Below are positions 7,387-63,989 of a DNA stretch of 64,000 bases, piece after piece. This DNA is from a virus. Its lineage: Duplodnaviria > Caudoviricetes. How positions within the stretch are numbered: position 1 is the stretch's first letter; every line of letters begins with the position of its first letter. The DNA is taken from the IMG/VR virus record IMGVR_UViG_3300022660_000081, positions 2,500 to 66,499 of that record, one strand, 5' to 3'. A model generated the notes under the pieces. The model was not told where the DNA came from. It saw nothing but the letters and a program-made list of their open reading frames with translations, and did not search any database. A program made the position numbers and the translations under genes.

Positions 7387-7388
7387 AA

Positions 7389-10868: not shown

Positions 10869-10894
10869 TCTCTATATATTAGTAATATAAAAGC

Positions 10895-11080: not shown

Positions 11081-11098
11081 TGTTAGTTACATTAAAGA

Positions 11099-13753: not shown

Positions 13754-13772
13754 ATTTACTACTATATATATA

Positions 13773-14003: not shown

Positions 14004-14038
14004 CGTGAATTTTTCTTATTTTTTAATTTTTTCACGCA

Positions 14039-15436: not shown

Positions 15437-15983
15437 CGTTTTCGTTAGCATCTAAAACTTCCCCCTCAATTACCTCTGGGGCTTTATGCTTAATAGTAAT
15501 AGTAACCTCTCAGATACCAGTAAAGTCTGTGCTTTCTTCCTTCTGTCTTCATACTCATAATCTATTAAGCCTATCCTTAATAGCATCGTGTCTTACTGCT
15601 GCTGGTACATCCTCATTCTGTATCATCTCCATCTGATAGTCTAAACATAACTCAGCATCAGTTGCTATCTTCTCCATAAGATAATCTCTTACCTTATCCA
15701 AATTCTTCATAGCTCTACCATTCCCTCTATCAGAAGCTAGCCATTCCTCTCTATTAGCTAAAGTACCCTTAGCAGCTCTATAAGCAGCTGTGGCATTATG
15801 AGATTGTAAGTATTCATCTACAAAAGCCTTTTGCTTCTCTGTTAGCTTCTTCTTCATAGCTATCTTATCATCTCACTTATACTTTCAGCTTCAAGGCTTT
15901 CAGTCCCTCACTATCTCTCTAATAGCTATAACGTTCTTTGACTTCTCTTGGGGTCATCTTACTTTTTCATTGCTTTCTTCCAT
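15429..15983 (-). CDS. terS: Phage A terminase small subunit, 184 aa
   Basis: LTEKQKAFVDEYLQSHNATAAYRAA HTH motif; extends both ways from track fragment 15555..15857 through TGA. Confidence 0.8.
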
Positions 15984-16345
15984 TTTGCTTTCTTAGAAAC
16001 TAAAGTAGTAGTAGCAATCTCTCAACTCTTAAACTCCTCCATCTTCTTCCTTATCTCCTCTACACTCCAAGCCATAAACGGCTTCTTATGTGTCATTAGG
16101 AAATAATCATTCCTCGCTCTATCCAACTCCCCATTATTCACTTCCTTCCCATACCTCTCAAATAGCTCATTCTGTAACTTGTTTAAGAAACCTAACACAT
16201 CCCAAGTAGGTAAATTCTCAAACCTATTAGCATACACCCTATACTCATTAATAAGCTTGAGTATAGCTTCTGCTTTCTCTGAAGCTTCTCTCCTCTCCAC
16301 TCCAGCGTGGTTGTTTTTGTTCTCTAAATCGATGAACTCAGCCAT
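15959..16345 (-). CDS. Phage A hypothetical protein, 128 aa
   Basis: Track 16022..16345 extended through TGA to TAA. Confidence 0.7.
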
Positions 16346-16367
16346 TTATTATGTTTAAAAGATAAAA

Positions 16368-16511
16368 TTACTTCTTTGCTCTATACTTAATAGAAAGCTC
16401 TTTATCCACTATCTTCCTACACTTTATACAATACTTAGCCTTCCTTTTCATCTCTACTCCACATCTCTGACAAACATTTCACCACCTATGCCCAAATATT
16501 ACATCCACCAT
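16368..16511 (-). CDS. 47-aa Zn-finger protein
   Basis: MVDVIFGHRWGNVCQRCGVEMKRKAKYCIKCRK: two CxxC pairs. Confidence 0.55.
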
Positions 16512-16556
16512 CTCATTCTCTATTATATAAATAAAACGTCCGAAAAACTCGGACAC

Positions 16557-16922
16557 CTAATCATTCCCATAACCTATATCTATCCCCTTATTCCTTAAAT
16601 TATCTAATATACTCTCTAAGGCAGCATTCTTATCTGAAAGTTCCTCGTTCTCTTTAGCATAATAATCTACATTTGCTTGTGCCTCCGCTAAAGCTTCACT
16701 ATCTCCCCCCAAAGAAGAAAGCAACTCCACTTCTCCTACAAGTATCCCTAAAAAATATTTCTCTACCTCCTTATATATAGCATAACTTTCTACTCAGTTT
16801 ATATTAAGAACAATAACCTCTCCTCTATCCATAGCTCTATCTAAGTACCTCGTATCGTCCGAAGCCTTCCCTAACTGGACTAATATGTCCGATTTCTTTT
16901 TATAAGTCCTTAATGAAATCAT
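16557..16922 (-). CDS. Phage A hypothetical protein, 121 aa
   Basis: MISLRTYKKKSDILVQLGKASDDTRYLDRAMDRG...; first gene of the leftward operon. Confidence 0.65.
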
Positions 16923-17379
16923 AGTTCTTAATACCGAAACTGATATAAATGACAGTTCTTTTATAAGCATTTGGTGTGCCGTGTCAAGAGAAAGTTTATT
17001 TTACTGATATTTTTGTCAGTAAATTGTTTTTTACCTTGGTGCGCGCGGTACAATACTATTGAAATTTTATGCGTTCTCATTTGGTTGCTACCCCTCCTCC
17101 GTCCGTCAAAATTTTTTTTTACAAGCAATTCTTAACTGATAAAACACAGCTGTCAAAAATTTTATTGACAGGTTGGGGCTTTTGAATTTTGGCTTTTTAT
17201 CTTAAAAGATAAAAGAAAAAAAAGAATATATCTTATTTATTACGTGTTTTTGTATATATCTTTTTTATATAGTTTTTTAATTAATTAATACTTATTTTTA
17301 TAAAGTTTTATTATTCATTATATAATATATATATCTTTATTATAAGTATTTATTTTTTTATCATATATTTGTTTATATT

Positions 17380-17575
17380 CTTTTTTGGATTTTTTAATTG
17401 TTTTTGATTTTATTTGTTTTTTTGATTTTTATTTTGATTTTGTTTTATTTATTCTTTTTGATTTTCTTTTATTATGTTTTTATTTGTTTTTTGATTTTGA
17501 TTTTATTTGTTTTTTTGATTTTATATTTTATATATTTTTTTGATTTTGTAAAACTTTTTTTGATTTTTTGATATA
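17380..17575. repeat. T-rich low-complexity array with about nine TTGATTTT copies
   Basis: Direct reading; a longer TTTTATTTGTTTTTTTGATTTT-like unit recurs about three times. Confidence 0.8.
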
Positions 17576-17730
17576 TCTTTTTAAGAGTTTTATTAATTCT
17601 TAATTGCTTTTTTATATGATAACTAAAAGTTATATGTTTTTTTATATTTTGTATTGATTTTTTTGATATTTTGAATAATATATAGTCGTTATAATAAATT
17701 TATAACTTTTTATTCTTTATTCTTATTCAA

Positions 17731-18039
17731 ATGAATACAACAACATTTAAAGTAAAAAACTTTTACCATTTAAATCAATTTGTTTTGGATAAAGATTGAA
17801 TAAGTATTTTTCAATCTTATAATTCCACTATTTGTATTATTGATTATTTTAATAAAGTTATAACTTTTTGAAATGATTATAACTATTCAAAAACAACAAC
17901 AAAACATTTAAAAATGTTTTTAAACGAATATTTATCAAATGTTTTTGAAAAAACAAAAGATATTGAAAAAATTATAAAAGATTGATTTTTTAATACTCCT
18001 TATAATGAATATAAAGTTGTTTTAAATTATGACTTATAA
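17731..18039 (+). CDS. First early gene of phage A, 102-aa widespread phage hypothetical
   Basis: NQFVLDKDGISIFQSYNSTICIID...DYNYSKTTTKHLKMFL resembles a common small phage family (recognised from memory). Confidence 0.7.
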
Positions 18040-18068
18040 AAAATTTTTATATCTTATTTATTATTAAA

Positions 18069-20960
18069 ATGTTTTGAATAATTCAAAAATACTTATATGA
18101 TAAAGAAAACTTATCTTTTGTTTTAGACTATTTAATAGACTATAAAGAAAAAAACAATAAAAAATTTAATATTGATAAAGCAAAAAACTTTTTAATTAAT
18201 TTATATATGAAAAAACAAAATAAAGAATTGACAAAAACAAAAATTAATGATAAAATAAATAAACTTTTATATTACATTCAATATGATTTTTAATTGATAA
18301 AACATAAACAAAAACAAAATTTTATATTTTAATTTTATCTTATGTATAATTTAAAAATATTTAATACAAAAAAAGAATTATTTAATTTTATAAACAAAAA
18401 TAAAATAAAAGATTTTAAATATAAATTATATCTTTTTGAATATAAAAACAAAATAATAAATAACTATTTTTTATCTTATAAATAATATTAAAAATGAAAA
18501 ATACTTGAATTAAAAATTGTTATAAAGATTTTAGACTTTTTCAATATTACAATATGAATATTGAAATAATAGACAATAATTTATTTTGTTTATGTTTTAA
18601 AGATAATTATTTTATTGTTTTTGATAAAGAAAATAAAGTTTTTTATATAAATAAACATTTATATAATAATTCAAAATATTTTAATAGTAAAACACTTTTT
18701 GAAAAAGTAAAACGCTTTTTAAAAACTTATTTATGAAAAACTATAAAAAGCAAAATAGACTTTATGATTTTTATTAATGAATGTAAAAATTTTAATAACA
18801 TTGATATAAAAGCGATTGATACATTATACTATAACATATATGAAAATACTATTTTATTTAATAATTAATTATTAAAATGAATAAAACTTTATCAATTAAA
18901 AATATGGATAAATATTGACTAAGTGAAAAATTAAAAGAATATATTAAAAGTGAAAAAATTTGTTTTTTTGCTTATCATATAGAAAAAAATGATTTTGAAA
19001 TATTAAAAAATATTAAATTCAATAATTGTTATGTTTATTGTGTAAAAGAATATTTTTATTCTTTAAAAGATACAAAAACAAGCTATTATATAAATTTTAT
19101 TAATAAAAGAATTTATAATGATTTTTATTCTTTAAATTATGATTTTTGAAAATTAAGATATTCATATTATTTTTATAAATTATAAGATTTTAATAAAGAA
19201 AAAAGATTTTTTGAAAATAATAATTATTTTTTAGACTATACATATAATAGCAAATTTTATAAAGAATATTTTAATAAATAATTTTATTTTATAACTTATT
19301 TAAAAATGAATTTAAAAGAATTAAAACAAGCTTTTATAATATTAAAAAGTCAAAAATTAATAGACTTTTATGAAATTGAAATATTGAAAAAAGAAAAATC
19401 ATAAAAGATTTATAACTTATTTTTGGATAAACGAAAACAAATATTCAATAGCTTTTGATAATGATTTAAAAAAAGATTTTGATTTAAAAAATGAAATAAA
19501 AAAACAAATAGAAAACAAAATAGAAAATTTAAATGTTTTATAAGTTTATTATTGATTGAAAATGAAAATAAAGCTTATTTTATTCTTAATATGATATATT
19601 TATCATTTGAGATTATAAACGTTGCTTATTTTAATTTTTACTATGGTATAAACTGTATTTTACTTTATCAAAATAACTTATTAAAACTTTTACTTTTTAA
19701 AAACTTATCAAAATGAAAAAATATATTTTAACAGATGATATATATTGTATATATCTTACAAAATCAAAAAAAGATTTAATAGACTTTACAAAATGATATT
19801 TAAAAGAGTGAAATATATTAAGCAATTTATGATTATACAAAATAAAGTATAATTCAAAAAAGATAGATATTGATAACTTTTTTTGAGATATTATAGCAAT
19901 AGATAAAAAAACAGATGAAAGCATAGACTATGATAATTATTTAAAATATTGAATTAAAGATTGACTATGTAAAAAAGATTTTTTATATCATAACTTATAG
20001 AAAAAATGTATATACTACAAGAACTTATTAACACTGACCCTATTAAAAAAACAAAAACACTAGAACAAATGGAAAAACGACTATTAGAAAAGGCGTATAA
20101 ACAAGTGTATTATGATAACCTAGATAAACAAACATATAGAAAATTATATAAAGAAATTACATACTGAAATTGATCAAAAGATTTAAACGCTTTTTTGGAG
20201 TATGAATTTTGAGTAAAAATTTTATATCTTAACTTATTATTAAAATGTATTATAGAATATTAGATGATTATTGATATCCATATTATTTTGGATATAATGA
20301 AAAATCTTTAAAAAGATTATCAAAATGGATATATAACGCAGAGCCAGACTTTTTTGATGAAAATGAATATGATGATAAGAAAATATATAGTAAATTAAAA
20401 AGATGAATATACAATATATGATGATATAATGTAGAAAAATCTGAAAAACCTTTTAGCAAAAAAGAACTAGAACAATCTTTTAACTTTTAATTATTATTAA
20501 AATGAATAATACAATAACAATAAATCAATTATACAAAATGTGTTTATATCAAATGAATAAATGAAATTGAGATAAACATATTATGATAACAACAGATGAT
20601 GAGCGAAATGGATATCATAACTTATTTTATTGATTTGTTTATGATAAAGATGAAATAGATAGTGTTTTAGAATATTCTTATCTTGATGAGTGAATAGATA
20701 AGGATAAAATAGTTTTACTTTGATAATAATAAAAATGGCAATAATATTTTACTTTATACTTTTAGCCTTGATATCATTATTTAATGATTAAAAAAGAATT
20801 AGACAATTTAAAATATAGGATATATAAGAAAAGCTGAAAAGCTGATTATATAACCTACAATCAATTTATACAAAATGAAAATGTAGCTTATACCTTTTGA
20901 GAACTACAAAAAAGAAAATCAAAAAAAGACTTGAAAAAGACAAAAAAATAATTATATATA
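18069..20960 (+). other. Cluster of about ten small, extremely AT-rich early ORFs (e.g. 18069..18293, 20502..20726)
   Basis: Short frames ending in TAA/TAG, each preceded by a TTTTATATCTT..TTATTAAAATG leader. Not all boundaries were resolved. Confidence 0.6.
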
Positions 20961-20996
20961 CATTGTTTTCATTTCTATGAAATAAAGAATAAAAGC

Positions 20997-28526: not shown

Positions 28527-28916
28527 ATGACAATGTTGAAAGATTTATTCAATAGTTTACTTGATAAATGACGAAAGCCGTTCGATATGGAATTCACAAA
28601 ATTTCATCACATTTCGAAAGACGGTGCGATATTCTTCTATAAATGAAAGAAACATCACGAATGAAGCCGAAATGTCAGAGATTTTGTCAGTAAAGAAAGT
28701 CTTTTGCGACAATTCGTATGTGAGAATGGAATGATAAACGCAAACGACACACCAGAAGAAAATATAATAAATTATTGGAGATATAATAAAGAAGACCTAA
28801 CAGAATGGCGATATATGAGAAATTATCAATACCGACTAATAGAAAGTTCCTTGAAAGATGAGAGTGAGCTTAAAGACTTTTTACTTCAAAACATTAAGGT
28901 ATGAAACGAAGATTAA
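28527..28916 (+). CDS. 129-aa hypothetical protein, paralog of 62684..63142
   Basis: 3' half nearly identical to the copy at 62936 onward; 5' half diverged. Confidence 0.75.
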
Positions 28917-29204
28917 AAAAATTCAAAAGCCATAAAGTCACTGGTTGAGAATATTGGAAACCATACTACAAGAAATGGTTGCGATGGAAAGAAAAGAAAT
29001 CTGAATTATGATTTGAGTTTGAATATGAATTAAATGAGATATGAAATATAGCAATTCCAGATATTAGGAGATGGGACAAAGAAGTAAAACATATAATCGT
29101 AGATAATGTATTTGATGTATTCATACTTTGAGATTGAAGAATTGTAACACTTTAGACTAATCAGACTTTTATATTATTTACCCTTAGAAAATGAAAAAAG
29201 AAAA
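28710..29204. repeat. ~495-bp direct repeat, copy 1 (copy 2 at 62936-63430)
   Basis: Offset 34,226 bp; a few substitutions in the first ~80 bp, then identical by eye. Confidence 0.9.
28901..29155 (+). CDS. 84-aa aromatic-rich hypothetical protein (identical copy at 63127..63381)
   Basis: MKWRLKKFKSHKVTGGEYWKPYYKKWL...; lies inside the direct repeat. Confidence 0.65.
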
Positions 29205-29768
29205 AAAGAAAGCTGAAGTAGAACAGAGAAAGAGAGTAGCCGAACTTATGAATAAACTATGAAAGTACCGACCAAATATAAAAGTAGAAGAACGAATGGC
29301 TTGTGACGATGTATACCTTGATGTATTAGATATGGCAATAAAAACTAAAGAATACTTTAGTAAATAATCAGACTTTTATATTATTTACCTATGGAGAGAA
29401 TGAAACATACAGGAGATTATGAATTAGATAGAATAAATATGTTAGAGCAAGAATGTGCAGATTTAGAAGAAGATAATAAGAGATTAGAAGAAGAAAATAA
29501 AAAGCTGAAATCAGATTTAGATTTTGTCTATATTGAGTGAAAAATATTAAATAATGACTTGTGTGTGTTGAGAAAAGAAAATGAAATTCTGAAAGAAGAA
29601 AACAAATATTTGAATGAAGAATTGAAGAAATTCATAAAAGCGTATTGAGAACTATTAAAGAAATATAATATATTAGAAGAACACAAAATCGGCGAAAGAG
29701 AAGCAATAGTAAAGGAAAACAAAAAGCTCAAAGAAGAACTACGAGAAATTACTTGAAGAAGATATTAG
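29191..29768 (+). other. Two cassette ORFs (29191..29367; 29391..29768 coiled coil)
   Basis: Each preceded by TAATCAGACTTTTATATTATTTACC. Confidence 0.6.
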
Positions 29769-32592: not shown

Positions 32593-33546
32593 ATGAAAAT
32601 ATTGAGCTTATTTGATTGAATCGCTTGTTGATATGAAGCTTTACTTCGTGCTTGAATCAAGATAGATAAATACTATGCGAGTGAGATAGATAAATATGCA
32701 ATACAGATAGCACAGAAGAATCACCCAGACATCATTGAAGTATGAGATGTTCAAAATATCGTTGGGGGGGGGTATGATATAGACTTACTATTATGATGAA
32801 GCCCTTGTCAATGATTCAGCGTAGCTTGAAAGAAATTAGCATTCGATGACCCAAGAAGTAAGTTGTTCTTCGAATATGTAAGAGTGTTGAAAGAAACGAA
32901 GCCGAGATATTTCTTGTTGGAGAATGTGAAAATGAAGAAAGAATGGCAAGATATAATCAGTAGAGAATTGTGAGTAGAGCCGATTGAGATAAATAGTAGT
33001 TTGGTGTCAGCACAGAACAGAAAAAGATTATACCGAACGAATATACCTGGCATTTCACAGCCAAAAGATAAGTGAATTTTATTGAAAGATGTATTAGAAG
33101 AAAAAGTAGATGAGAAATATTACTTATCAGAAGAACAAGTGAATCAATTATTACGCCGATGAAAGTGAAGAAATGATAGATGAATAGAACACCTAAACAT
33201 AAAATCAGATGAAAAGATATGAGCAATTACATCACATTGTTGAGCAATGTGTAATACAATAAAGTTGATAAAGGAAGTTGAGATACCTTGTGCTACACAG
33301 ATATGAAACAGCCCAAACTTCTGAAACAGCTATGGAAGTCAGAAAGCATATACATTAAGAGCAAGCAACCCAAATGGTGTGATAGAAAAGCATAGAATAA
33401 GAAAGCTGACACCCATTGAATGTGAAAGACTTCAAACATTACCAGATAACTATACTGAATGAGTGAGCGACACACAAAGATATAAGATGTTATGAAACTG
33501 ACGAACTGTTGATGTTATTGCCCATATATTAAGCTTTATATGATAA
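32593..33546 (+). CDS. DNA cytosine-5 methyltransferase, 317 aa
   Basis: Motif I LSLFDGIACG; IV GGSPCQG; VI LLENV; VIII QNRKRLY(W)TNI; X LGNG(W)TVDVIAHI; in-frame G9 tract at 32764-72. Confidence 0.95.
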
Positions 33547-44851: not shown

Positions 44852-46618
44852 ATGGCTGATTCATCAACTTATACCTTATGACTTGTAATTACAGCACAGA
44901 ATAAAGCGATAGAAGAAATCAATAAGCTTTGAAAATCTGTTGATAATGTGAAATGATGAATCACAAAGCTTTCTGAAACAACAAAAAAAACTTTGAAAAC
45001 AATCTGAACAACAGCAACAGCTATCGCTTGAAGTGTTGTTGCATTATGAAAAACTTTTGTTGATTCAGCATTAGAGAACGAGCCATTACAAAGAAGTTAT
45101 GAAAGATTGACAGAAACAGCACAAATTTCAGCAGATGAAATGCTAAAAGCTATGAGAAAAGCTTCAAAGTGAACTGTTTCAGATACAAAACTTATGGCTT
45201 CTGCAAATACAGCCCTTTCATTGAATGTAGTAAAATCAGCTGATGATATGGCGACTCTTATGGAAATCGCAAGAGTGAAATGACAAGCAATGTGAAGAAG
45301 TATGGAAGAAGCACTTGATGACATCGTAAGATGATTATGACGTGCAAGCCCAATGATTCTTGATAATCTTTGAATAGTTATCAATCAAACAGAAGCACAA
45401 GAAGAATATGCTAAACAACTTTGAAAAACAGCTTCACAATTGACAGAAGCAGAAAAGAAACAAGCCCTTGTAAATGCAGTTGTAAAGCAAGGAAAACAAG
45501 AATTGCTTGAAACGTGAGAATTGCAATTGACTATGGCTGAAAGATTACAAGTTGTAAATGCACAACGAGAAAATATGAAGAATACACTTGGTGAAGCTTT
45601 GTTGCCAATAGTTCAAAGAGTATTAGAAGCTATTACACCTATTATAGAAAGAGTTTCAGAACGAATAGAACAAAACCCAGAACTTACAGCAAATATTATG
45701 CTTACTGTTTGAGCAGTTGCTTGATTAGTTGCTGTATTATCTTGACTTGCATTAGCATTGCCTTGAATAGCAACAGCAATTGGAGTTTTGAGCTGACCTA
45801 TTTGACGAGTTCTTGCTTGAATTACAGCATTAGCAATAGCTTGGAAGAATAATTGGTGATGAATACAAGACAAAACAAAAGAAGCAGTTGCAGATATAGA
45901 AGAAAGAATCTGACCACGAATTGAAAAAATAAGAACACGATTTGAAGAACATTCTATTGAAATCAATACTTATCGATTTGCTTTACGAGAATGAATCAAA
46001 TGAATCTTATCGTGAGCAATAGAATTCATAACTTGAAGTCTTACAATGTTCTTTGATTGACTTTCTATAATGATGTCTTTCTTTTCGTGAGATTTTCAAT
46101 CAGCACGAGAATGATTATGACAGTTTCTTGATGATTTCGCTATTACGGTTGATAATACTATGACAGAAGCCTTTGGAGATATGCGAACTAATATCAAAAA
46201 CTGATTTCTTGAATGATATAATACTTGTGTAGACTTATTGCAAAGACTTTACAACTTTATTCAAAGTATTGTTGCTTGAATCAGAAACGCTTGGAATAGT
46301 ATGACATCAGCAGTAAGTAGTTTTGTTGATAGGTGAGTAAGTGAAGCAAAAAGTCTTATAAAAAGAATGTCGTCTTGAAAGAAAGCTTGATGATGAGTTG
46401 TATATTGATGAGAAACATATCTTGTATGAGAAAACTGACCAGAATTATTCACACCAAGCCAAAGATGAATGATTACTCCAAATAATCAGATTACAAATAA
46501 TAATGGAATAGAAATCAATATTTCGTGAGTAAGTGTAAGAAATGATGAAGATATCAATGCACTTGCAAATGAGATAGTAAGACAAATCAAATTAGAGAAA
46601 GATTTTGGAATAGCTTAA
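44852..46618 (+). CDS. Tape measure protein, 588 aa
   Basis: Ala/Gly-rich helical protein with TM-like stretch; C-terminal GGVVYGGETYLVGENGPELFTP motif. Confidence 0.9.
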
Positions 46619-46641
46619 TTTTACATCAAATCAGATAGAAA

Positions 46642-47472
46642 ATGGACGATATATTATTGAATAGTTGATTGCTATGAAATGCTTGACAGAAAAAGCTAAA
46701 AAAAGCAGAAAGCTGAATGTTCATTTTCAATTGATACAATCTTCACAACTGAACAACAAGAAAGATTATCAATTCGAATCACGATGATTTGTGAAGTATG
46801 GCTTTTGAAACATATAATTACCCAAGAGCAGATTGATGAAATGCTTTGAGTAAGTATTACAGAACAAAGACAATTACTATGACAATGAGCCTTACAGCAC
46901 CAACAGAAGAATGATTGAATGATTTGATAGATGAGCTAAAATTTCAAACAAGCAAAACTCAATGATATCTTGATATAATTATCAATGGAATAGTAAGAAG
47001 ACGAGAAGCAACTTTGACTTCTTTGCAGTTTTGAAGACAATCTTATAATGTGAATCGAATATGAACTGTTCAATTAAGATTTGAATGCGTAAACCCATTA
47101 TCATTCACACTTACATCAATTACAAATACATTTTCTTGAATTAGTGGTGCTTATGCGACTGAAATAAATTACACGTGAAAAGTTGTAGCTTACCCAACAA
47201 TTTATCTAATCGTGCAAGCTGAATACGATTTGAATAGTTTCTCTATCGATATGAACTGATATATCTTCACAATAAATCAGTCAATTTTACCGTGAGATTT
47301 GATTACAATAGATTGAGAAACAAAACTCGTAAAAATCAATGGAGTTATAGTTCCATATAATTGACCATTCCCAGCAATTGAGCCTTGATTGAATCACATA
47401 GAAACAAGCTTGAATAGTTGAGCATTAGCAAATTACGATATGATATTTATATACAAAAACTTGTTCTTGTAA
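46642..47472 (+). CDS. Distal tail protein (Dit-like), 276 aa
   Basis: Follows the tape measure gene; QLRFECVNP...DLITIDGETK...IEPGLNHI. Confidence 0.7.
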
Positions 47473-48524
47473 TGAATAGATATGACATCAAAGTATTCAA
47501 TAAAAATGGAGTCTATCAATCAACGATAAACCCTAATCTGATTATGAATGACATATCTTTTTCTGAAAATACGAACTGATGACAATGACAATTGAATCTG
47601 AATCTTGCATTAGATTTTTGAGATACAACATTCTCTTGATGAGAAATTATTAAGGTTATATTGTATTCAGAAAGATACAAGCAAGGAAAACAGATATATA
47701 TGTGATATGTTTCACAAATTTCAAGAATCTATGAGATAAACAAATGATACATCAATATTGTATGCTTATGAATAGCAAGTTTATTGACAAAGATTCTATA
47801 TGCTTGAAGTTATTCTTGAAGCGTAGCAACATTATTGAATTGAATCATTGCAGAATTCAATTCTAATTATTCTTGAAACCTAATTACAGTATGAAGAATT
47901 GATTCGTTTTCTTCATCTTTGAGCTTTGATTTTGATAATAATATCACTTGTTCGAAAGCAATAGATAAAATCGCAGATTCTTGCAATTACTATCGATTTG
48001 TAAATTCAGAATGAGTATTTTCTTTCAGAAAGAAATGAACGCAGACAAATCATATAGTAGCGAATAAACAAGCTTTGGAGTCTATGAAATTGAATTACAA
48101 TATAGAATCAATGGTGAATAGATTCTATGTATCAAGAAAAGACTGAACAATAAAGACTTACAATGATACAACATCACAAAATACATATTGAATCAAAGAA
48201 AAATACCAGCAACAGACAAGTTTAGAGAATGAAGCAACACAAGATGAATATTGAAACAACTATATTTCACAATATTCAACCCCAAAGAATGCTTCAACAA
48301 TAGTTATCAATTCAGAATATGATATTGAGTCAATTATTCCGTGAGATACAATCACAGTAGTGAATACTACATATCCAGTTCATAATCTACTGATAGAAAA
48401 AATAAATTACAGACCAGATAGAATTACACTTACACTTGAAGAAAATGAAACATTGCGAAGCGTAATAAGTGAATAATTGAGAATATTCAGATTTATTTAT
48501 CGTATTCGTAATTGGTGATTATAA
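47472..48524 (+). CDS. Baseplate hub/tail-tip protein, 350 aa
   Basis: Follows Dit; start overlaps the Dit stop. Confidence 0.6.
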
Positions 48525-48560
48525 TACCAACAATATAGATTTATTTCTTATACAGACAAT

Positions 48561-50597
48561 ATGGCTTTCACAAAATATCAAAACACGAATAATGCCAGTT
48601 CGTTATTGATAGCTGATATTTCAGCAAGTGCAACAACAATGTTGATTACTGACGGCGACCAGAATCTATTCCCAAGTAAATTCCCATTTTTGCTTACATT
48701 AGAACATCTTGATTCTGAATGAAATGTAATATTAAGAGAAATCGTAAAAGCAACAGCTTGAAATCAGAATTCTTATACTGTCGTAAGATGAGCTTGAACT
48801 TGTGTTCAAGATGATACAGCTTCAAATAGAAGCCAAGATAATACAGCACACGCTTTCTATTCGTGAGATAGAGTTTCATTATATCGAACATCTGAACAAG
48901 TAAAAGACATTCAAGATAGATTAGAAACATCAGCAAATGATACAGCAATAGCAGATGAATATAGTTCTTCTCAAACATATACAATATGAGATATTGTAAT
49001 GTATAAATGAGATAGATATGTATGTTCAACAGATGTTTCAACAGCCGAAGAATTTGATTCTACAAAATGGACAAAAGTTTCAGTTCAATATGATTTAGCA
49101 CAAGCACAAGAAGATATAGAAATTTTGAAAAATTCTTGATGAAGTTCAGACCACCTTGAAGAAGAATGTCTTGTATGAGAAAAATATGTTGCAACAGATA
49201 AACTATTCAAACAAGAAACGCCAAGTCTTGATAATTCAACAGTTGATTATAATATATGAGATGTTGCTACAAACACACAAGTTCACATACAAAGAATCGG
49301 AAGTTGAGTAGCAAGTAATACAGTAAAATTGAAAGTAAAGATGACTTGAAGCCCAACAACAGCTTTACATTGTGATGTATATGAATGAACATCTTATGAT
49401 GTATCATCTACTGAAAAAGCTTGGACTTGAACTACATTACTTGCTTCAAGTCAAGTTGCATATACGAGCATAAGTTCAAGCTATGCTGAAATCACTTTCA
49501 CATTAGATAATGAAATCTGATGAACTGAATGACAGCTTCTTGATGTTGTAGTATATCAAGACAATAATACTGTAAACGCTTCAAACTATTATCAAATAGC
49601 TTGTGATTCTACACAATATTCAGAAGCTTTCAGATGTGTATCAGTAAATGGAAGCACAAAAACGCCAAGCTATCTAATGCCATATTGTTCAAGTGATTGA
49701 TTTGCACAATATTTATTATGTAAAGTCAGTTTTTTGGCTTCAAATTTAGAACGAACTTGAAATATTTCAAGTGGTATTTCGTGAAATTCAACTTCGACCG
49801 TTGCAATGGCATTGACAAACCCAACTAATCAACCGATTAAAGTTCCATATTCATCATTGAGTATCACTTGTCGTGCAAATGTAAATTCGGCTATATACGT
49901 TGGTCTTCGAGTTTATGATAGTTCTTGAACGTGAACGTCGAATTGAATAAATTACGGCTATGCAACAACAACAGACGCTACATATACTTGAAATGCTTCT
50001 AATTTATTTAGTCTTCCAGCGTGAAGTTCTTTAAGAATTTGATTTTACAACAGCACATCAACATCTCGTGCATACGTTATAACGAAATATGAATTTCATT
50101 TTGATTGAATTGATAAAAAAAACAACATAAAATCAGAAGTTTCTTGATATGCAGTAAATTGACAAATCTTCAATATATGAGAAATGTGAAAGTTTGCATT
50201 TCGGTGAATAAATAATTGAGAATTCTATACAACAGTTCCTATTTATGATACGAGAACGAAATATCTTATGACAAATGCTGTTGTCAATTCGTCAGCAATA
50301 TATTATAGAACAACAGCAGATGTAGAATGACAATATATGCTTATTGCAAGCATTTGATATTATTCTTGACAATCACATAGCTGATTCACTCTTACCCTTT
50401 GAGATAAGGCATTTTGGAGTTGAGCAACTGTAAGACAATGAGAAACTTTTGTTATGTCAAACCGATTAAAAGTTTGAGATACAATTCAAGTTTATGATAC
50501 TTGACATTGAAACACAACCTATTATGCTGAACTTAGGTGGTGCTTATTATGACCAATGTGAAGTAGTATTACTTCAATGACAGCTTCTACTTCCTAA
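48561..50597 (+). CDS. Tail fibre/receptor-binding protein, 678 aa (constant N-terminal ~381 aa plus variable C-terminus 1)
   Basis: Single frame; CBM-like YSSSQTYNIGDIVMYKGDRYVC segment; Ser/Thr/Gly-rich C-terminus; crossover site at 49702-24. Confidence 0.85.
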
Positions 50598-51493
50598 TAT
50601 GATAAATAAGTCTGTTCTCTTTATGAGTTCAGACTTTTAGTATTCTCGCCATTGAATAGATATATTTCGATTATTCGTGTTATAGCTGTTAGAAATAGTA
50701 AGTATATTATTAGAAGCAAAATTAAGCATTATAGGTTGCGAATTTGAATTAGATATACAACAATATGAGTTTGAAGATTGTCAACGTCAAAGCAGAAAAA
50801 AACAACTCGCATAATACGTAGTTCAATTATATCGTTGAACATATCACTTAATCAACTGTGTTGATTTGTTAAGTGATATTGTGTATGAAGTCGTTGTAGA
50901 AACCCATTGTCTAATCGAACCACTTATATATGGCGTATTATTAAAAAAATTTCCAATAGCATTCATATAATCAGGAAGAACATTATCTGTGAACATTGTT
51001 CAATCTTTTACTCCAAATATATTGATTTTTCATTGTTCTCCAATGCTTCGAATAGTTCAACCAACAGCATATCAGAATATATCTATTGTTGTCTTTCTTG
51101 CATAGCTCACGATTCAGCTTCGGCTTGCTGATGTCAGATAATGCGTTCTTGTAGTATTTGTGTACTGATTGTATGAATATAATCAAACACTTGTTCAAGC
51201 TGGAATTGTGAATGTTAAGTCTTTTGTGTATGTTTCTGATGTTGTTCATAAACTGCAAATAGTTCAGGATATACTTGTTCAATTAGAAAAATTTATTGAC
51301 TGATTTGTTCAGATATTAGCGTATCAAGTTATGGTTGCTGAAATCTGCATACTTACATCAAAAGAATTGCTGTTTGTATAGACAGTATTCTGCCAGCTCG
51401 TAAGAGTTTGATAAGGTACGCTTATAGTTCAAGCTCATCTACTTCAACTAATAGCTTCTTGAATAGTTGTTTTACATAATAAATATTGTGCAA
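49702..51493. mobile_element. Invertible DNA segment bounded by perfect 23-bp inverted repeats
   Basis: TTGCACAATATTTATTATGTAAA at 49702-49724 and its exact reverse complement at 51471-51493. Confidence 0.85.
50637..51491 (-). other. Silent alternative tail-fibre C-terminus (~284 aa, no start codon at its 5' end)
   Basis: Open from the inverted repeat in the same register (AQYLLCK) to TAA at 50637; shares the GYAV.G.I..IGE.GK motif with C-terminus 1. Confidence 0.85.
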
Positions 51494-51603
51494 CATTTCA
51501 GATTTGAATTATAGTTATAAAAGCAACATTTAAGGAATTATTTCTTTTATAAGACTATTATGCTTATAATACATATACTATATTTATTCATATATGAAAA
51601 ATA

Positions 51604-52086
51604 ATGAATGAAGCAGAATGAATCGCAATAGGAATATTCGGTTGAATATCTGTTGCTTGAATTCTTGATTATTTCTCAATTAGTTGAGAATGACTTATTA
51701 TTATGAGCATTATGCTTGTTCTTGATTTCTTATTCTGAATCTTATCTGCAAAAGTGAGATGAGAAAAGATAGAAAGTAGGAAATGCCAAGAATGACTTAT
51801 CAAGAAAATGACTCGCCGACTATTGCCATTCATCGTTGCTTGATGATTGAAATGGACTTGAATGCCTTGAATGGAAGCTTTGACAAAAGTAATAGTCTGA
51901 ATGATAATCTTTTCTGAACTTTACAGCGTAATATGACATATCTATTCAATAAACTATAAGGAAGAACTTCCAGAAGCAGACGCTTTCAAGATGTTATTGA
52001 ACAGCATAGTAAAGTTATTGAGAAATCTGATTAAGAAAGAGAATGAAAAAATAGATACAGAAGATGAAGATTTATCAGAAAAATAA
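51604..52086 (+). CDS. Holin (phage holin family 4-like), 160 aa
   Basis: Several TM helices; LVLDFLFGILSA...S...GLIKK...ELYSVIGHI...LP..F. Confidence 0.8.
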
Positions 52087-52092
52087 TATTCA

Positions 52093-52284
52093 ATGATAGA
52101 TTACAACATCATACAAACTGATTTGTGATTCATCATTAAACGAATTGATGATGAAAAGATTTTGTATCGAAATTGAAGATATCGAACTAAATACAGAAAA
52201 TTTGCAAAAACGTATTATTTCAAAGACCAAGCTTTATCTTGACTAATGATTGCAAGAAGATGTTGAGAAATCGACCCTTACTAA
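52093..52284 (+). CDS. 63-aa hypothetical protein
   Basis: Open with TGA=Gly. Confidence 0.5.
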
Positions 52285-52442
52285 TATTGCTGGCTTGAAT
52301 AATACGATTTTTATTTTTTGGTGCAGTATGTTAGACAATCTGATTGATAGCATAATCAAATATATACAAGAGAAGAAGTTGAGAATTAAGATTTTATCTT
52401 ATAAGAAGAAATCTAATGCACAAGTGAAACAAAGAGATTCCA

Positions 52443-52700
52443 ATGAGTAAACATCACTTGTTGCCAACTTCCAGATGATGAGCAAATATATCAAAGAACA
52501 TAGAGATTATTAGAGATGTGAATCATAGAGCGATTCATACATTATTCCAAAATCAGATGATAGCAGAACAGCTTATTACAACTGTAAATATCAGTTCAAA
52601 AGCTTTGCGTGAAGATGTAAAAGAACGGTTGCTTGAAGTTTTACAAAGTAAAGACATCAAAGACCCATACGAACGATATAAAGATGATTGTATATTATAG
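52443..52700 (+). CDS. Mini HNH-like endonuclease, 85 aa
   Basis: HHLLPTSRGG.N...NI...HRAIHTLF. Confidence 0.7.
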
Positions 52701-52724
52701 CTTTTATCTTCTAAAATATCGCCA

Positions 52725-53672
52725 ATGAAACTTGAAAAAGATGTGATTGATAAAATCAACTCTTACCCACAAGAGAAAACAGATAAAGAAATCTGATTAG
52801 AGCTGTGAATCGATAGACATACAGTCTGAAAATACAGAAGCAGAATCGCAGAAGCATTACAAATGAGCAAGGAAGATAAACAGAAACAAGAGCTTGTGAA
52901 GACATATTCACCAGAAGAACTGAAAGATATATTGAATCATCTTCAAACACATACATCAAAGAGCATAGAGAAAGTGATAAGCGATAAATGACATCTGAAG
53001 TTCGCTCTTGTAAGTGATACACATCTTGGAAATAAGCAATCAGCAAAGAAAGAACTTCAAGACTTCTATAAGAAAGCTTGAAGCGAATGAGTAGAAGCTT
53101 TCATACATTGTTGAGATTTAGTAGATTGAACTTGAAACGTATTCAAATGACAAGTTTATGAGCTTGAAAATGTATGATACGACGAGCAATTGAAAACAGC
53201 TGTGAATGATTACCCTTATTATTGAGATGTGAAGACTTATGTAATATGATGAAATCACGATGAAAGCTTTTTGAAAGAGAATTGAGCGAACATAATCAAG
53301 AACATTGCGAATCTTCGTGATGATATAATTGATATGTGATTCTATGACGCAAGAATCAAGCTTAATTGAGTTGATATAAATTCTCATCATTGAGCTTGAA
53401 ATATGAGCTATGCAAAAAGCTATAAGCCACAGAAACTAATAGAGAACATAGATACAAGAAATCAGCCAGATGTATTTGCGAGCTGACATCGACACGACGC
53501 TTTATATATGGCTTATAGGAATATTCATACATTCTTACCGTGAGCATTCTTGAAGCAGAATCTATTAGCAAAGAGATTGAATCTTTGAACTACTATCTGA
53601 TGACGAATTGTTGAAGTAAATATCAAAGATGATTGAAGTAGTGATATTCAAATGAAGTTTATTGAATATTAG
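52725..53672 (+). CDS. Metallophosphoesterase with N-terminal HTH, 315 aa
   Basis: SDTHLG, HCGDLVDG, GGNHDE, SHHG and GH(W)H motifs. Confidence 0.9.
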
Positions 53673-53694
53673 TTTATATCTTATCTAATCTATT

Positions 53695-54684
53695 ATGAAA
53701 AAAGACTTTGCACGAGATTATTGAGATGAATATGCGTTTTGAGAAGAAGTAGATTTTGATATTAAAGAAATCACGCATAATGTTCGACCACATTCAAATC
53801 AATGAGCAAATACTGAAACATCATCAGCTTGCACGATTATATGAGCATTGAATCAGATAATCAGATTATTCTGAATTGAGCTTACAAAGAAAGAATCAAA
53901 TAATCTATGAATAGAAGTAGTTCACTATTGTGAGCAATTCTGATATAGAATAGGAAGCTGACGAGATACGCCAACAGCAATCAATTCAGTATGTAAGTTT
54001 TGGAATGAGATATGAGCAGAAAGATTCAAGACTGAAAGAGTATTCTATACAAGAAGATATTGGAATACAGAAAAGCCACAAGAAGCATTGAAGAAATGAC
54101 ATCTTGTATGATTCACTATGGCTTTGAACTTTGGAGAAGATAGAAGAAAATGATTAGTCTATAAAGATTCTTACCCAGCTTGATGATGACATCGCTTGAA
54201 TCGACAAAGCACGAAAACAACAAGACCAACTTGATGAGCAAGTGAGCCAACAGCAGATTGTTGAGTTTATGACAATTATGATTGACTTACTAATCAATAT
54301 CTAATAAGAGATAGAAGTAAGTATATGAATAAAGGAATGTATGCTTGGTGATATATTATTCTTCCACAATCACGAATGAAAAAAAGTGTTGAAGAAGAAA
54401 AGAAAGCAATAGCAGAAAGAAAAGCAATAAACTATGTTCTTTGAGCTTTATCTTGTGCTTATGAATCAGTTTCACCAGAATATCAAGAAAAGTTTTCAGA
54501 ATTAGCAAAGCAGATAAGACAAGACTTTAAGAATGCAAGAGCAATGGAATCAGACAAAGAAAAGAAATGAGCGATAGCTATTACTGACGCATTGAGCTAC
54601 TTATACAAATTCGCAAATAGCGAGAATCAGAAAATTTATTCAGAATTAGCGATGAAGAATAGAAAAGATTATAATTTTGAATAA
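53695..54684 (+). CDS. Papain-like cysteine peptidase, probable endolysin, 329 aa
   Basis: NQG...SACTIIG (catalytic Cys), GGH, DNY; lies in the lysis cassette after the holin. Confidence 0.65.
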
Positions 54685-54764
54685 GAAAAGCCAGTTTGTT
54701 TCGTTAGTAAAAAAATTCTTGCAATCAGATATCTATTCAATATGAAATAGATTACTTCGTATGA

Positions 54765-54792
54765 AAAAAGCACCGTTCTGGTGCTTTTTGTT
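54765..54792. terminator. Bidirectional terminator
   Basis: AAAAAAGCACC-GTTCT-GGTGCTTTTT between convergent genes. Confidence 0.8.
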
Positions 54793-54793
54793 A

Positions 54794-55525
54794 TTATTCA
54801 GATGTAGTTTCTTCTGTTGGAGTTTCTTCAACTGGTGCTTCACGCATATAGACTATATGTTCTTGTCATTTGATGTTGTATTTGAAGTAATATCATTCAG
54901 AATCTCTTGGAACTTCATATACAAGCTGAACAAGTAAAGGAATTCAAGGTTTAGAAGTGAGCATTGCTGGTCGATTCTTTACGTAGAAACTGCAAGACAT
55001 TCAACAATCTATTTGAGAATAGCTTCTTCATTGAGAATCATAGATTTTAGGAAACATATTTGTTCGAAGCGTTGCTTCTGCACCTTGTTCATTCTGCACC
55101 TGGAATGAAACAATAAGATATTTAGACATACTTCAAGCAACAAGATTTCATTCGAACATATTATTGCTTTTTAGAGTTGTTTCTTCTTGTATTTCTCACG
55201 GATATATTCAGATTCAATTTTCTACACTTCATCGAATATCATCTCATCAAATGTAGTGAACGATTGGAGTCTTATCAGCAGAACTTCATCATCAGTTTAC
55301 ACGTTTTTCTGCTGAATTGTTTCAGATGTATCAAATAATTAGAAGAATTATGAAGATAGATACAGCCCAGCCAATACATCACATCTTTTTCTTTTTAGTT
55401 TGTTCTACATAAACGACCTTTTCTTCTTTTGCTGATTCCTTTTTACTTCAATCAAGGAATTCTCAACAATGCTTGCATTTTTTAGCACCGTCTTTGATTT
55501 CTTCATTACAGAATGGACATTGCAT
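54794..55525 (-). CDS. Zn-ribbon + TM + extracellular (DUF4352-like) protein, 243 aa
   Basis: MQCPFCNEEIKDGAKKCKHCGEFL; one TM helix; beta-rich ectodomain ending LVYEVP; divergent from the recombinase gene. Confidence 0.7.
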
Positions 55526-55653
55526 AGCGAACGACATTAAGATATAAAGTTGATTAATATATACAGTTATCAAATTGGAAGTAAACTATAAAATTAGAAT
55601 TATCTTTACATTTCAAAGAAAATATATATAGTATAGTATGTTGACATAAGCTT

Positions 55654-56652
55654 ATGAAATACACACAGCTTTTTATATGCTTATGTTTTTCAAATATGCA
55701 CGAATTCAGACAGACATTACAAGACCGATGTGATTATGAAAAGGAAGTAAAAAATCATAATTCACGAGAATATAGATTTTGTATGGTGAGATGTTTCTTT
55801 AAGCGATTAGTTGCAACTAATAGACCAATTATTATCGAAGAAATAGAGCTTTCAGATATTATAAATTACTTGATATATTATAAGACAACACCTATCAAAG
55901 CAAAATGACATAAAATTTGAAAATTCCCAACAAGGAATGCAGAATACAATTCAGTATGTTCAATCAGATGTTTCTTTAAGTATTGCTGTATTGTATGAAT
56001 GAGATTGAAATTCAATCGAGAACAGATTCCGATGTTCAAACAAGATGAAGCAAGACGTGAGCCAATGAGCAATGAAGACTTTGAATTATTACATCAAGCT
56101 ATAAAGAAATATGCAAAATCAGAAGAAATCAGAATCAGAAATGAATTGATGATAGAAATACCACGAGAAACTTGATTAAGAAGAAGCGAAATAGTCAGAT
56201 TAAGATTTGCAGACTTTCATAATCAGAATCGTCAATGCCGTGTTCTTGTAAAGTGAAACAGATATGAATCAGTTTTCTATTCAGAAAAGCTACAAAAGAA
56301 AGTTCTTGATTACGAGAAGCTACTTAATGAGAAATATAAAACACTTGATATTGAATATATATTCATATGTTTAGGACAAAAAGAGAAATGAAAGATAATG
56401 ACTAATGATTTGCTATGATGAAAATTCAGAAGAATAGTAAAAAGAATGCAGAAAGATTGAATGCTTCCAGAATGAAAAAATTTAAGTCTTCATCAAGAAA
56501 GACATTCATTTGCAATGAGATGTGTATATAGCTGACTATCACAACAAGCAACAACCCAACTAATGCGTCATAAAGACCCAAAGATTACGCTTCATTACTA
56601 TCATATGAACGATTCACGACTATTGAATCAATACGATTCGATTTGTGTGTAA
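55654..56652 (+). CDS. Tyrosine recombinase (XerC/D-integrase family), 332 aa
   Basis: TGLRRSE (R), VKGNR (K), HQERHSFA (HxxR), LMRH (H), TLHY (Y). Confidence 0.92.
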
Positions 56653-56949
56653 AATTCCAACTGTAAATAGATACCTAAAATCAAAAAAGTCAAAAGATAG
56701 TGTTTTTTATGTTATTGAATACCTTATGAAACACCAATTAGAAATTGCACTTTCAAAAAAGTGTATATTTTCCATAAAAAATCTTGCAAAAAATTTGACA
56801 AAAAAAAATAAATCATTATATTTAATACAGTTAAGTTTGAAAGTGTTGATGAGAAAGTCAGATTTTGCAAAAAATAACCGACATTTTTCAAGAAACACTT
56901 CGTATCAATAAAGTTCTACCAATTACGAGTAGCTTATGTCAACCACGAT

Positions 56950-57111
56950 ACGACGACAAACTTAACAGCCGTCGTTCAAGAATAAACAACATCAACTTTT
57001 AATTCCGACAAATCAAGGTGTTGTGAAACTGAACGACATCACAACGCCTTTGTTTGTCTGAATTGATTGTGTGTAAGATTCGAACAAACAAAGCAAATGT
57101 TCGAGTCTTTT
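56950..57111 (+). promoter_or_regulatory. Three-hairpin structured leader ending in a terminator, upstream of the replication genes
   Basis: ACGACG/CGTCGT; long imperfect stem 57001-57064; AAGATTCGAACA/TGTTCGAGTCTT followed by a T run. Confidence 0.45.
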
Positions 57112-57130
57112 TATTTATTCAGAAAAACAG

Positions 57131-57298
57131 ATGACAAGAAAAGGAATCATCACAATAGTTGTAAGTATGATTGTGTGCTTACTTACACCAGCTGGACTAT
57201 ATGTGTATGTAGTTCCATTTCTTGTCTGATGTATCTGATGAAAGAAAGTTCGAAAGTTTTATTTCCATTATTTCTTCAAGCAAGATGACAGAAATTAG
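57131..57298 (+). CDS. 55-aa membrane peptide
   Basis: Hydrophobic N-terminus; overlaps the initiator start. Confidence 0.45.
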
Positions 57299-62027: not shown

Positions 62028-63886
62028 TCAGATTTATATTATTAATTATTACAGAGCGATGAAAAAAGGAATAAACTATAAGAAATTAAAAAATTCAGAA
62101 TTAGAAAGAATATGTAAACAGATAAACGACTATAAAATGCACTGACTGTATTTTTGGTATTGTGGCTAATCAGATTTATATGTTTATTAATACCTAATGA
62201 AAAAAGAAGACATAATACTGATTGTATTTATGATTATTATGGTTATATTCACTTGTTATTTATACAATTTGAGATTTAGTCAATCAGACCTTTATATTAT
62301 TACCATAGACTAATGGAAAAACTTATAGAGTTATTAAATGAGTATGAAACACCAAGAAGCTGAATAGTATTTAAGAGTTATGATGATTATGATTGAACTT
62401 TCTATTGAGTAGATTGTGATTGAGAAACAGAAATAGCTTGGAGTGATAGTTATATATGCAGTAAGAAATTCTGATTTATAGAATGGCTTGTAGAGAATGA
62501 GAAAATAAATGAAGAAAAAGTAAAAAAAGAAGCTGAATATTATTGGACAGATGAATACGATGTATATGTGTGATATGTATTTTATCATAGATTACTAATG
62601 CTACTTTCTATTCAAGACAAACCTATTAAAGATTTAATTAGTTATTTGAAGTAATCAGATTTATTTACTTAATTTAATAACCTATGGAAAAGAGAAAAGA
62701 AAAAGCAGATTTAGAACAGCTATTGAATAGCTTGATAGAGAAGGGGTGGAAACCTTTTGGAGATAATGCAATCAAATTTGATTATGACTGAATGAAAACT
62801 CGTTACTGATATTGAGCTATAACATATTTATATAGAGATAGTTATATTGATGACTATTGAGATAAAGTTGAATATGAAGAATGGAAACACCAATTCAATA
62901 ATAGAGAATTAGTAAGTAAAGAAAGCTGACTATGGCAATTCGTGTGTGAGAATGGAATGATAAATGCAAACGACACCCCAGAAGAAAATGCAATAAATTA
63001 TTGGAGATATAATAGAGAAGACCTAACAGAATGGCGATATATGAGAAATTATCAATACCGACTAATAGAAAGTTCCTTGAAAGATGAGAGTGAGCTTAAA
63101 GACTTTTTACTTCAAAACATTAAGGTATGAAACGAAGATTAAAAAAATTCAAAAGCCATAAAGTCACTGGTTGAGAATATTGGAAACCATACTACAAGAA
63201 ATGGTTGCGATGGAAAGAAAAGAAATCTGAATTATGATTTGAGTTTGAATATGAATTAAATGAGATATGAAATATAGCAATTCCAGATATTAGGAGATGG
63301 GACAAAGAAGTAAAACATATAATCGTAGATAATGTATTTGATGTATTCATACTTTGAGATTGAAGAATTGTAACACTTTAGACTAATCAGACTTTTATAT
63401 TATTTACCCTTAGAAAATGAAAAAAGAAAAATCTGACATTAAACTTAGGGAATATAAGCAACCACTATTTCTATATGATTTATTAGAGCATTGAAAATGT
63501 TATAGTAGGTGCGAAATAGAAAATCAATGATGGTATGAAATAGATGGCTATGCTATAACAAGTAGAGATGTAGCAATGTATAAAAAAATGTCACAATTAT
63601 TACAGCAATGAAAGAAAATTGAGCCAATAAACAGTATGTATAGTGCCTTCTTATACAAAGACTAATCAGACTTTTATATTATTTACCTATGGAGATGAAA
63701 GATTTAGAAAAAGAATTAGAAAAATCTGTATGAGAAATAATTATAGACCTACAAAGAGAGATTAGAGAATTAGAAGAAGAAAATAAAAAGCTGAAAAAAA
63801 TTCTGAATAGAATTAAAGAGCTATATGAAGATGAAGAAGAAGCTGAATTGTTGAATTATTTAGACGAAAATTTAGACGAGATTTAG
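62025..63886 (+). other. Cassette array of small ORFs (~62059, ~62197, 62313..62654, 62684..63142, 63127..63381, 63417..63665, 63689..63886) separated by TAATCAGA boundary motifs
   Basis: Motif at 62025, 62167, 62281 (CAA variant), 62652, 63384 and 63663; codon style switches back to phage A-like. Confidence 0.65.
62936..63430. repeat. ~495-bp direct repeat, copy 2
   Basis: Matches 28710-29204. Confidence 0.9.
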
Positions 63887-63913: not shown

Positions 63914-63989
63914 GGTATACGTGGTTTAATGGTTAGAACGCTGGTCTGTGGAACTAGAAGTAGCAGTTCAATTCTGCTCGTATACCCCA
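63914..63989 (+). tRNA. tRNA-His (GUG)
   Basis: G-1, acceptor stem GTATACG/CGTATAC, C73, encoded CCA; anticodon loop CTGTGGA; T-arm AGCAG-TTCAATT-CTGCT. Confidence 0.95.

Follow-up and report, generated by a model that had tools for sequence, protein, structure and literature searches.

The stretch of viral DNA analysed here (the window; 64,000 nucleotides) spans bases 2500-66499 of the 66,499-base IMG/VR virus record IMGVR_UViG_3300022660_000081, and our subject is a tail-fibre gene that is accompanied by a second, silent tip. Read in genetic code 25, the fibre open reading frame (ORF; 48561-50597, plus strand) encodes 678 aa and contains 46 TGA codons. Codons 1-380 (48561..49700) make up a constant N-terminal part, recognized from the code-25 ORF, from homology to 12 related phages and from PHROG 8469, a tail fibre protein family that matches residues 9-307 (E 5e-9). 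At codon 381 the gene enters the left copy of a perfect inverted repeat, and behind that copy lies the tip expressed in this record (tip A; 49725..50597, plus strand, TAA stop included; 297 aa counted from the repeat). A second tip (tip B; 50637..51470, minus strand; 284 aa counted from the repeat) is silent in this record and has no start codon at its 5′ end; its frame runs open for 284 codons from the right copy of the repeat to a TAA at 50637-50639, contains 20 TGA codons and ends 39 nt from the fibre stop. The segment between the repeats thus holds two tips and a 39-nt spacer only, without a second gene of the U/U′ type. The two convergent stop codons are separated by a hairpin detected by RNA folding (50608..50636; -14.2 kcal/mol, z -3.8 on the plus strand; -11.1 kcal/mol, z -2.3 on the minus strand). 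A simple terminator scan left this hairpin unflagged; it is a candidate two-way terminator that would serve whichever tip is expressed.

The preliminary description of this DNA had proposed the minus-strand frame, put at about 855 bp, as an alternative fibre tip lacking a start, and our analysis bears this out. There is no internal stop over its 284 codons in the window, and the first ATG, GTG or TTG lies at 51350, 48 codons inside the repeat. The register is the same across the repeat, which is read as AQYLLCK in both frames (codons 382-388 of the fibre). The tips are alike in length (297 vs. 284 aa) and related in sequence (BLASTP E 2e-10, 30% identity over 196 aa), and in a MAFFT alignment their similarity extends to a common TTYYA near the C-termini. 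In the motif said to be shared by both tips, one residue of the version quoted for the silent tip has to be corrected: it reads GYAVGGTIRSIGEQGK, with R rather than W.

The same frame might instead be an independent 237-aa gene that starts at the ATG at 51350 and converges on the fibre, with the repeat merely incidental, and a 237-aa ORF is indeed called on 12 contigs. However, the homology to tip A is in frame and begins at the repeat, 48 codons before that ATG, no stop interrupts the frame once it has left the repeat, and in the flipped genomes described below it is fused to the constant part of the fibre, so that we consider an independent gene very improbable. Whether the arrangement can be seen at all depends on the genetic code. 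The system had been called invisible to standard-code gene callers, and the standard code does hide it; however, public pipelines that read TGA as Trp report a 663-aa fibre and a 237-aa minus-strand ORF from the internal ATG at 51350. The lesson for annotation is that a code-4 caller will report a silent cassette as a stand-alone gene.

Both orientations of the segment in natural sequences

Contigs of the same phage were found by exact-protein look-ups of neighbouring genes, translated with TGA as W. Several of them (L016-L020, L023 and L025) have the segment in the orientation of the window. In the ENA contig L021 (ERZ27248457, k141_1213383), positions 1-3121 equal window positions 46604-49724, positions 3099-4890 equal window positions 51493-49702 on the opposite strand, and positions 4868-10483 equal window positions 51471-57086, all at 100% identity. 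The same inverted arrangement is present in L022 and L026, two excerpts of one contig (ERZ27248306, k141_3278657). Each flipped excerpt matches the window at 100% over 9-11 kb apart from the inverted 49702-51493, with the joints inside the repeat, and about 20 kb of the ERZ27248306 contig could be compared with zero further differences. Comparison with these contigs by blastn therefore delimits an invertible segment of 1,792 bp, both sites included (49702..51493). No other difference separates the genomes, so the flip is more recent than any point mutation they carry. Two JGI contigs bear on the junctions. L024 (3300022654), the product of an independent pipeline, opens with 40 nt from the beginning of tip A, reversed, followed by the repeat and the right flank, and this is the flipped right junction. 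L018 (3300018427) is identical to window positions 49702-51593, its end being the outermost base of the left repeat, as expected of a point where the assembly graph would branch if both joints were present.

It had been predicted that inversion would yield an intact fibre with a different tip, and these natural sequences bear this out. Read from the upstream ATG in code 25, the flipped gene encodes an uninterrupted fibre of 665 aa in which tip B is joined to the constant part, and tip A lies silent on the opposite strand in L021, L022 and L026. In the output of gene callers, the flipped contigs have a 650-aa fibre, which is called from a later start, and a 287-aa minus-strand ORF, compared with 663 and 237 aa in the unflipped ones. 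According to the cluster table from which contigs were counted, the 663-aa fibre of the window orientation occurs on 6 + 12 contigs and the 237-aa ORF on 12, and the 650-aa fused fibre and the 287-aa silent tip A of the flipped orientation occur on 2 contigs each, giving a tally of about 18 to 2 in favour of the orientation in the window.

Inverted repeats can mislead assemblers, and both of the full flipped contigs come from one pipeline (megahit k141), which raises the question of whether the flipped contigs are assembly artefacts of the repeat. However, 23 bp is far below the final k-mer of 141, so reads must span the junctions; two samples contain both junctions; the independently assembled L024 has the flipped right junction; and the unflipped form was recovered by the same pipeline in sister samples. 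With a repeat so much shorter than the assembler k-mers and both junctions in several samples, misassembly is a highly unlikely source of the flipped form.

The crossover site

As the preliminary description had stated, a perfect 23-bp inverted repeat lies inside the fibre gene near codon 381 and recurs downstream. Its left copy (IR-L; 49702..49724, plus strand, codons 381-388) and its right copy (IR-R; 51471..51493, minus strand) are 100% complementary over 23 nt with 1746 nt between the arms. Both are breakpoints of the natural inversion, and the junction at the right copy is the one seen in L024. Of all perfect inverted repeats in the window whose copies lie within 5 kb of each other, this one is the longest; shuffles from an order-1 Markov model gave about 0.23 inverted 18-mers per window and none longer, and 0 of 100 dinucleotide shuffles contained two matches to the repeat at ≤3 mismatches. 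Beyond the arms the resemblance is lost: the flanking 60 nt of the copies agree at 25% on one side and 35% on the other, the random level. The window contains no third copy of the site, and searches of viral and metagenome collections for exact copies of the 23-mer, with records near the window's own left out, gave no matches.

The position of the repeat within the fibre was compared with 12 related phage contigs (L002-L008 and L011-L015), of which 7 are from IMG/VR and 5 were binned into metagenome-assembled genomes (MAGs). These relatives share the Dit gene, the 352-aa tail gene and fibre residues 1-380/390 at 59-80% identity, the constant part of the fibre itself being 59-66% identical. The homology stops at ...PYCxSDGFA, the start of the repeat, and beyond this boundary the relatives' fibres, 806-830 aa in total, have unrelated tips. 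Since homology ends where the repeat begins, the repeat sits on a natural joint between the constant part and an exchangeable tip, and the crossover sites are thus placed inside the fibre gene at the constant/variable boundary, as in the Gin, Cin, Min and Pin systems. Neither the repeat at the junction nor a silent tip was found in the 12 related fibre loci. The ends of contigs L002, L006, L007 and L008 lie in the fibre tip or at most about 600 nt past it, which suggests strain-level heterogeneity of the tip in those relatives too.

A search based on the recombinase encoded downstream of the fibre recovered three further phages with enzymes 64-70% identical to it (L131, L132 and L133), and one of them has a comparable site. 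L131, whose recombinase is 70% identical to that of the window, carries a perfect 23-bp inverted repeat (4325-4347 / 5674-5696) between its fibre genes and its holin. One copy falls in a 372-aa tail gene (codon 160), the other in a convergent 258-aa frame (codon 27); both are in the same register and read TIIVVQSS, and the 372-aa gene is unrelated to tips A and B. The two phages' repeats differ at 4 of 23 positions, with the same arms, a similar centre and a different translation frame, and the L131 site has perfect 8-bp arms. Since nearly the same site is found in another frame and another gene, it is conserved as DNA. Allowing ≤2 mismatches, the arm motif was found only in the two window arms and the two L131 arms; neither the remainder of the window nor 16 other related phage loci (about 350 kb of related DNA) contain it. 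A separate, looser scan identified sites at 14-35 and 737-758, 720 bp apart, around a variant cassette in L136, a Logan contig related to L131. This layout hints at a shufflon with multiple cassettes; one of the two sites is 13 nt from the contig end. Degenerate scans of IMG/VR for the site returned 95 and 39 single palindromes, and a partner site was present only in the contig of L131. No flipped form of L131 was seen among 6 contigs. In another relative of L131 (L135; Logan SRR30829484), a 367-aa RVT_1 reverse transcriptase is encoded at 684-1787, just upstream of the holin, where other phages have inversion cassettes; it may be part of a diversity-generating retroelement serving the same purpose.

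These observations bear on a further alternative, namely that the two orientations are two fixed strains produced by a one-off event of homologous recombination, by RecA or a phage enzyme, over 23 bp of chance or residual homology. No dedicated invertase adjoins the segment, a length of 23 bp is close to the shortest on which homology-driven exchange can act, and the counts of the two orientations are skewed to about 18:2, all of which would suit such an event. However, the flip is younger than any point mutation and is observed in three assemblies, the register is preserved and the silent tip is intact over 284 codons. Moreover, the perfect identity of the repeat stops abruptly between tips that are only about 30% identical at the protein level, and nearly the same site is reused in another frame and gene in L131 and L136. 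We therefore judge a one-off exchange unlikely.

The organization of the site itself points to a tyrosine recombinase. The 24-mer at 49701-49724 (the repeat and the preceding T) has 9-bp arms with 7 of 9 positions matching in the complement and an asymmetric 6-bp centre; to judge by sequence pattern, this 9-6-9 dyad is the layout of a tyrosine-recombinase core site. For comparison with dif we used the published E. coli, B. subtilis and Bordetella sequences (PMC2731167 and PMC3025954). Several published dif sites have an XerD-side arm identical to the right arm of the repeat; the left arm is the weaker one. The 28-mer at 49699 is the top dif-like site of the window and agrees at 23 of 28 positions with dif of Bordetella pertussis, against a maximum of 21 in only 20 shuffles. 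This resemblance may be taken as a lead, not as proof. Another dif look-alike at 56767-56794 (19 of 28 positions) was rejected as being at chance level.

Candidate enzymes for the inversion

The sole recombinase of the record is a 332-aa tyrosine recombinase (55654..56652, plus strand; PF00589, E 1.7e-19). It lies 4.2 kb from the segment, behind the lysis genes, in the integrase position of temperate siphoviruses, and its matches to Xer-like families are weak, generic and all far below the family cut-offs. A dedicated invertase was not found: PF00589 matches a single protein in the record, and the whole 66.5-kb record, with stops read through, contains no match to PF00239 (Resolvase; the control was positive in 12 of 14 genomes), to PF07508 (large serine recombinase) or to an enzyme of the IS110/Piv type. 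The recombinase has syntenic orthologues both in relatives that have no switch (37-43% identity) and in L131, L132 and L133 (64-70% identity). Its position and these orthologues in switch-less relatives identify it as the integrase of this phage family, not a dedicated invertase. However, only the window, L131 and L136, whose enzymes belong to the closer clade of 64-70% identity, were found to have sites, which favours a second role as invertase.

We infer that crossover is site-specific and carried out by a tyrosine recombinase. The enzyme responsible could well be the recombinase in the phage's own integrase position, which is the sole candidate that the phage itself encodes. A host Xer-type enzyme or another invertase acting in trans is a serious possibility as well; it would fit equally well and would explain the resemblance to dif. 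General recombination over a short homology seems a rather doubtful way to produce the flip.

Three observations near integrase genes are recorded here in their own right. The intergenic DNA that follows int is conserved among four phages and lacks a site-like core. Within it, window positions 56950-57150 and the aligned parts of L131-L133 are strongly conserved and contain a hairpin followed by a T-run; this DNA may encode a small RNA or act as a regulatory region. In L011, a 20-nt inverted repeat of 95% identity (14618-14637 / 16072-16091) surrounds the integrase gene and is conserved in L012 and L014.

A two-state switch in the tail fibre

Taken together, we are confident that in this temperate siphovirus, which uses code 25, the tail-fibre (receptor-binding) gene contains a functioning DNA inversion switch with two states. 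The two tips face each other with their 3′ ends in a 1,792-bp segment that has the 23-bp repeat, in the same frame on both sides, at its borders, and reciprocal, conservative recombination within the repeat flips this segment. After the flip, tip B is fused to the constant part and tip A is the start-less silent copy. The two tips would presumably bind different receptors, in which case one lysogen would release particles of two adsorption types. By analogy with known phages, and from the position of the gene, the outcome may be host-range switching.

Several observations weigh against this interpretation. In one further assembly of the phage (L019; JGI 3300022589, a 66,521-bp contig), one T is missing from the TTT run at 51233-51235; this 1-bp deletion shifts the frame of the silent tip B and reduces the called ORF from 237 to 214 aa, and it represents either decay of the cassette while silent or an assembly error. 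Among longer proteins there were no homologues of the tips, and a search of 1.84 billion representative proteins returned only the phage's own 237-aa ORF, although such protein libraries translate code-25 contigs poorly and the absence of homologues is therefore weak evidence. An AlphaFold model of tip B built from a two-row alignment had a mean pLDDT of 33 and was unusable. With neither homologues elsewhere nor a usable model, it is the position of the tips in the fibre that suggests receptor binding. The contig breaks no more than hint that both states coexist in a single sample. As for the enzyme, the recombinase is 4.2 kb away from the segment, and its orthologues in switch-less relatives are integrases; that of L132 is 69% identical yet its genome has no site, and L135 has its reverse-transcriptase gene in the place of a cassette. 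No site-like sequence is conserved next to int, hence there is no shared attP core to back a double role, and the dif resemblance is modest and was set against 20 shuffles only.

More speculatively, code-25 phages such as this one, L131 and L136 might diversify different tail genes by means of a portable palindromic site of about 22 bp that can be used in any frame, without a dedicated invertase. If this tentative idea is correct, the flip would be made by a single integrase acting a second time, or by the host Xer proteins on a mimic of dif. This would be an unreported route to a phage host-range switch, and the first such switch in viruses of the candidate phyla radiation. The absence of an invertase also makes this a tractable case in which to ask whether an integrase or host Xer can drive programmed inversion.

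Genomic context, genetic code and host

The fibre is the last gene of a siphovirus morphogenesis module, in which it is preceded by genes for the terminase (34148), portal (36302), protease (38256), capsid (39697), tube (43035), a 588-aa protein in the position of the tape-measure protein (44852), Dit (46642) and the 352-aa tail protein (47418). Downstream of the fibre is the holin gene (51604-52086), followed in order by a metallophosphoesterase gene, two unknown genes, a gene on the minus strand for a zinc-ribbon membrane protein and the tyrosine recombinase gene (55654-56652). The metallophosphoesterase (52725-53672), SbcD/Mre11-like by PHROG 7339, is encoded between the lysis genes; it has no tblastn match in any related locus, and the genes that flank it are adjacent in L011. 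In the divergent early region (17455-20981) there is a cluster of 14-16-bp inverted-repeat pairs (e.g. 17455/20910 and 17535/19757) that may be operator-like sites.

The record also contains a second phage structural module on the minus strand (window 3-16970), with genes for a small terminase (15429-15983), a large terminase (14039-15451) and a capsid-like protein (8355-9515), all on the minus strand, and with large TGA-rich genes at 3-7386. A 531-bp direct repeat of 97% identity (28677-29205 / 62903-63431) has its copies 34,226 bp apart, and a tRNA-His gene (63915-63989) is located about 480 nt to the right of the right copy. ENA contigs of 34,367 bp (34,226 + 141) are mutual rotations, which indicates that the switch-bearing phage closes as a 34.2-kb circle or graph loop; other assemblies have the joint form of 61-67 kb. 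The joint record may be a cointegrate or a tandem of two related phages. The identical lengths of the 34,367-bp contigs were considered as a clue to attP and rejected, since the contigs are rotations of a loop closed on the 531-bp repeat.

The phage uses genetic code 25, in which TGA encodes Gly. This was verified with the C5 cytosine methylase at 32593-33546: when the protein is translated with X at TGA and aligned to DNMT3, the X residues coincide with the G of FxGxG and the GG of GGxPC, which are conserved Gly positions of C5-methylase motifs. Use of TGA is very uneven, from 1-9 TGA codons per gene at 8355-13063 to 35-63 per gene at 3-7386 and in the fibre module. Because TGA is read as glycine, the host probably belongs to the Absconditabacteria or the Gracilibacteria. 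The preliminary description had proposed a host of the Absconditabacteria type; the code behind that proposal is confirmed, but Gracilibacteria share it, so the assignment has to be widened. The 5 MAGs that contain related contigs use the standard code. The related code-25 phage contigs in question (L011-L015) are binned into MAGs labelled Fimenecus, Onthomorpha, Clostridia and Alphaproteobacteria, and the remaining recombinase genes of these MAGs have zero in-frame TGA codons, so these contigs have probably been misassigned to their bins. What is known of the phages of Absconditabacteria and Gracilibacteria comes almost entirely from metagenomes, and most of their hosts are uncultured. A published study of such phages mentions neither tail fibres nor inversion (PMC10746230). 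The verified switch in a receptor-binding gene suggests that these phages encounter hosts with variable surfaces, as is the case for coliphages and gut prophages.

Comparison with known systems

The principle of inverting fibre tips is decades old; what is new here is the code-25 host group, the 23-bp dif-like site reused across frames and genes, and the lack of a dedicated invertase. The likeness to the Mu G segment and the P1 C segment that had been pointed out holds for the logic of the system. As in Mu G/Gin, P1 C/Cin and p15B Min, a constant N-terminus is combined with alternative C-termini through in-frame inverted repeats within the gene, the silent copy lacks a start or promoter, and one genome specifies two particle types. 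However, the likeness does not extend to the enzyme or to the contents of the segment: no serine recombinase is encoded in the record, and the segment consists of two tips only, without a second gene. Nor is the site a gix or cix; its 9-6-9 dyad is typical of tyrosine recombinases.

With Xer/dif sites, the repeat shares two inverted arms around a 6-bp centre, but its left arm is weaker, and involvement of Xer is offered as a hypothesis. Xer-driven inversions are familiar from the surface-protein loci of Mycoplasma, and pdif modules from Acinetobacter plasmids.

Prophages of Bifidobacterium provide the nearest parallels. In the Rin shufflon of Bifidobacterium breve and Bifidobacterium longum prophages, the receptor-binding protein (RBP) of a siphovirus is varied by promoterless tips that recombine at short in-frame crossover repeats (Mavrich et al. 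2018, PMC6109161). That system has several cassettes, 11-bp sites and a dedicated armless recombinase gene beside the cassettes (PMC6109161). The locus described here resembles Rin in its constant RBP part, its variable tips and the expectation of a tyrosine-family enzyme. Its two cassettes are likewise without promoter and start when silent and are headed by the same repeat, and alternative cassette arrangements occur on otherwise identical genomes (L021, L022/L026 and L024 vs. the window). It differs in having two cassettes, a 23-bp site and no dedicated recombinase flanking the cassettes. A recombinase-less inversion of about 500 bp at an 8-bp site was also described in the bifidoprophages 689b-1 and Bb423phi2, which are integrated at tRNA-Met, and its authors propose that the invertase is supplied in trans (PMC6109161). 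There, too, a structural gene trades its 3′ end for a small, dissimilar gene segment by a single inversion, with no recombinase gene alongside. However, the genes involved are of unknown function and the inversion was inferred from two different prophages, whereas here the gene is a tail fibre and both states are found on identical genomes. The Rin shufflon is thus the system closest in kind to the fibre switch of this phage, and the recombinase-less inversion of 689b-1 and Bb423phi2 is closer still in architecture.

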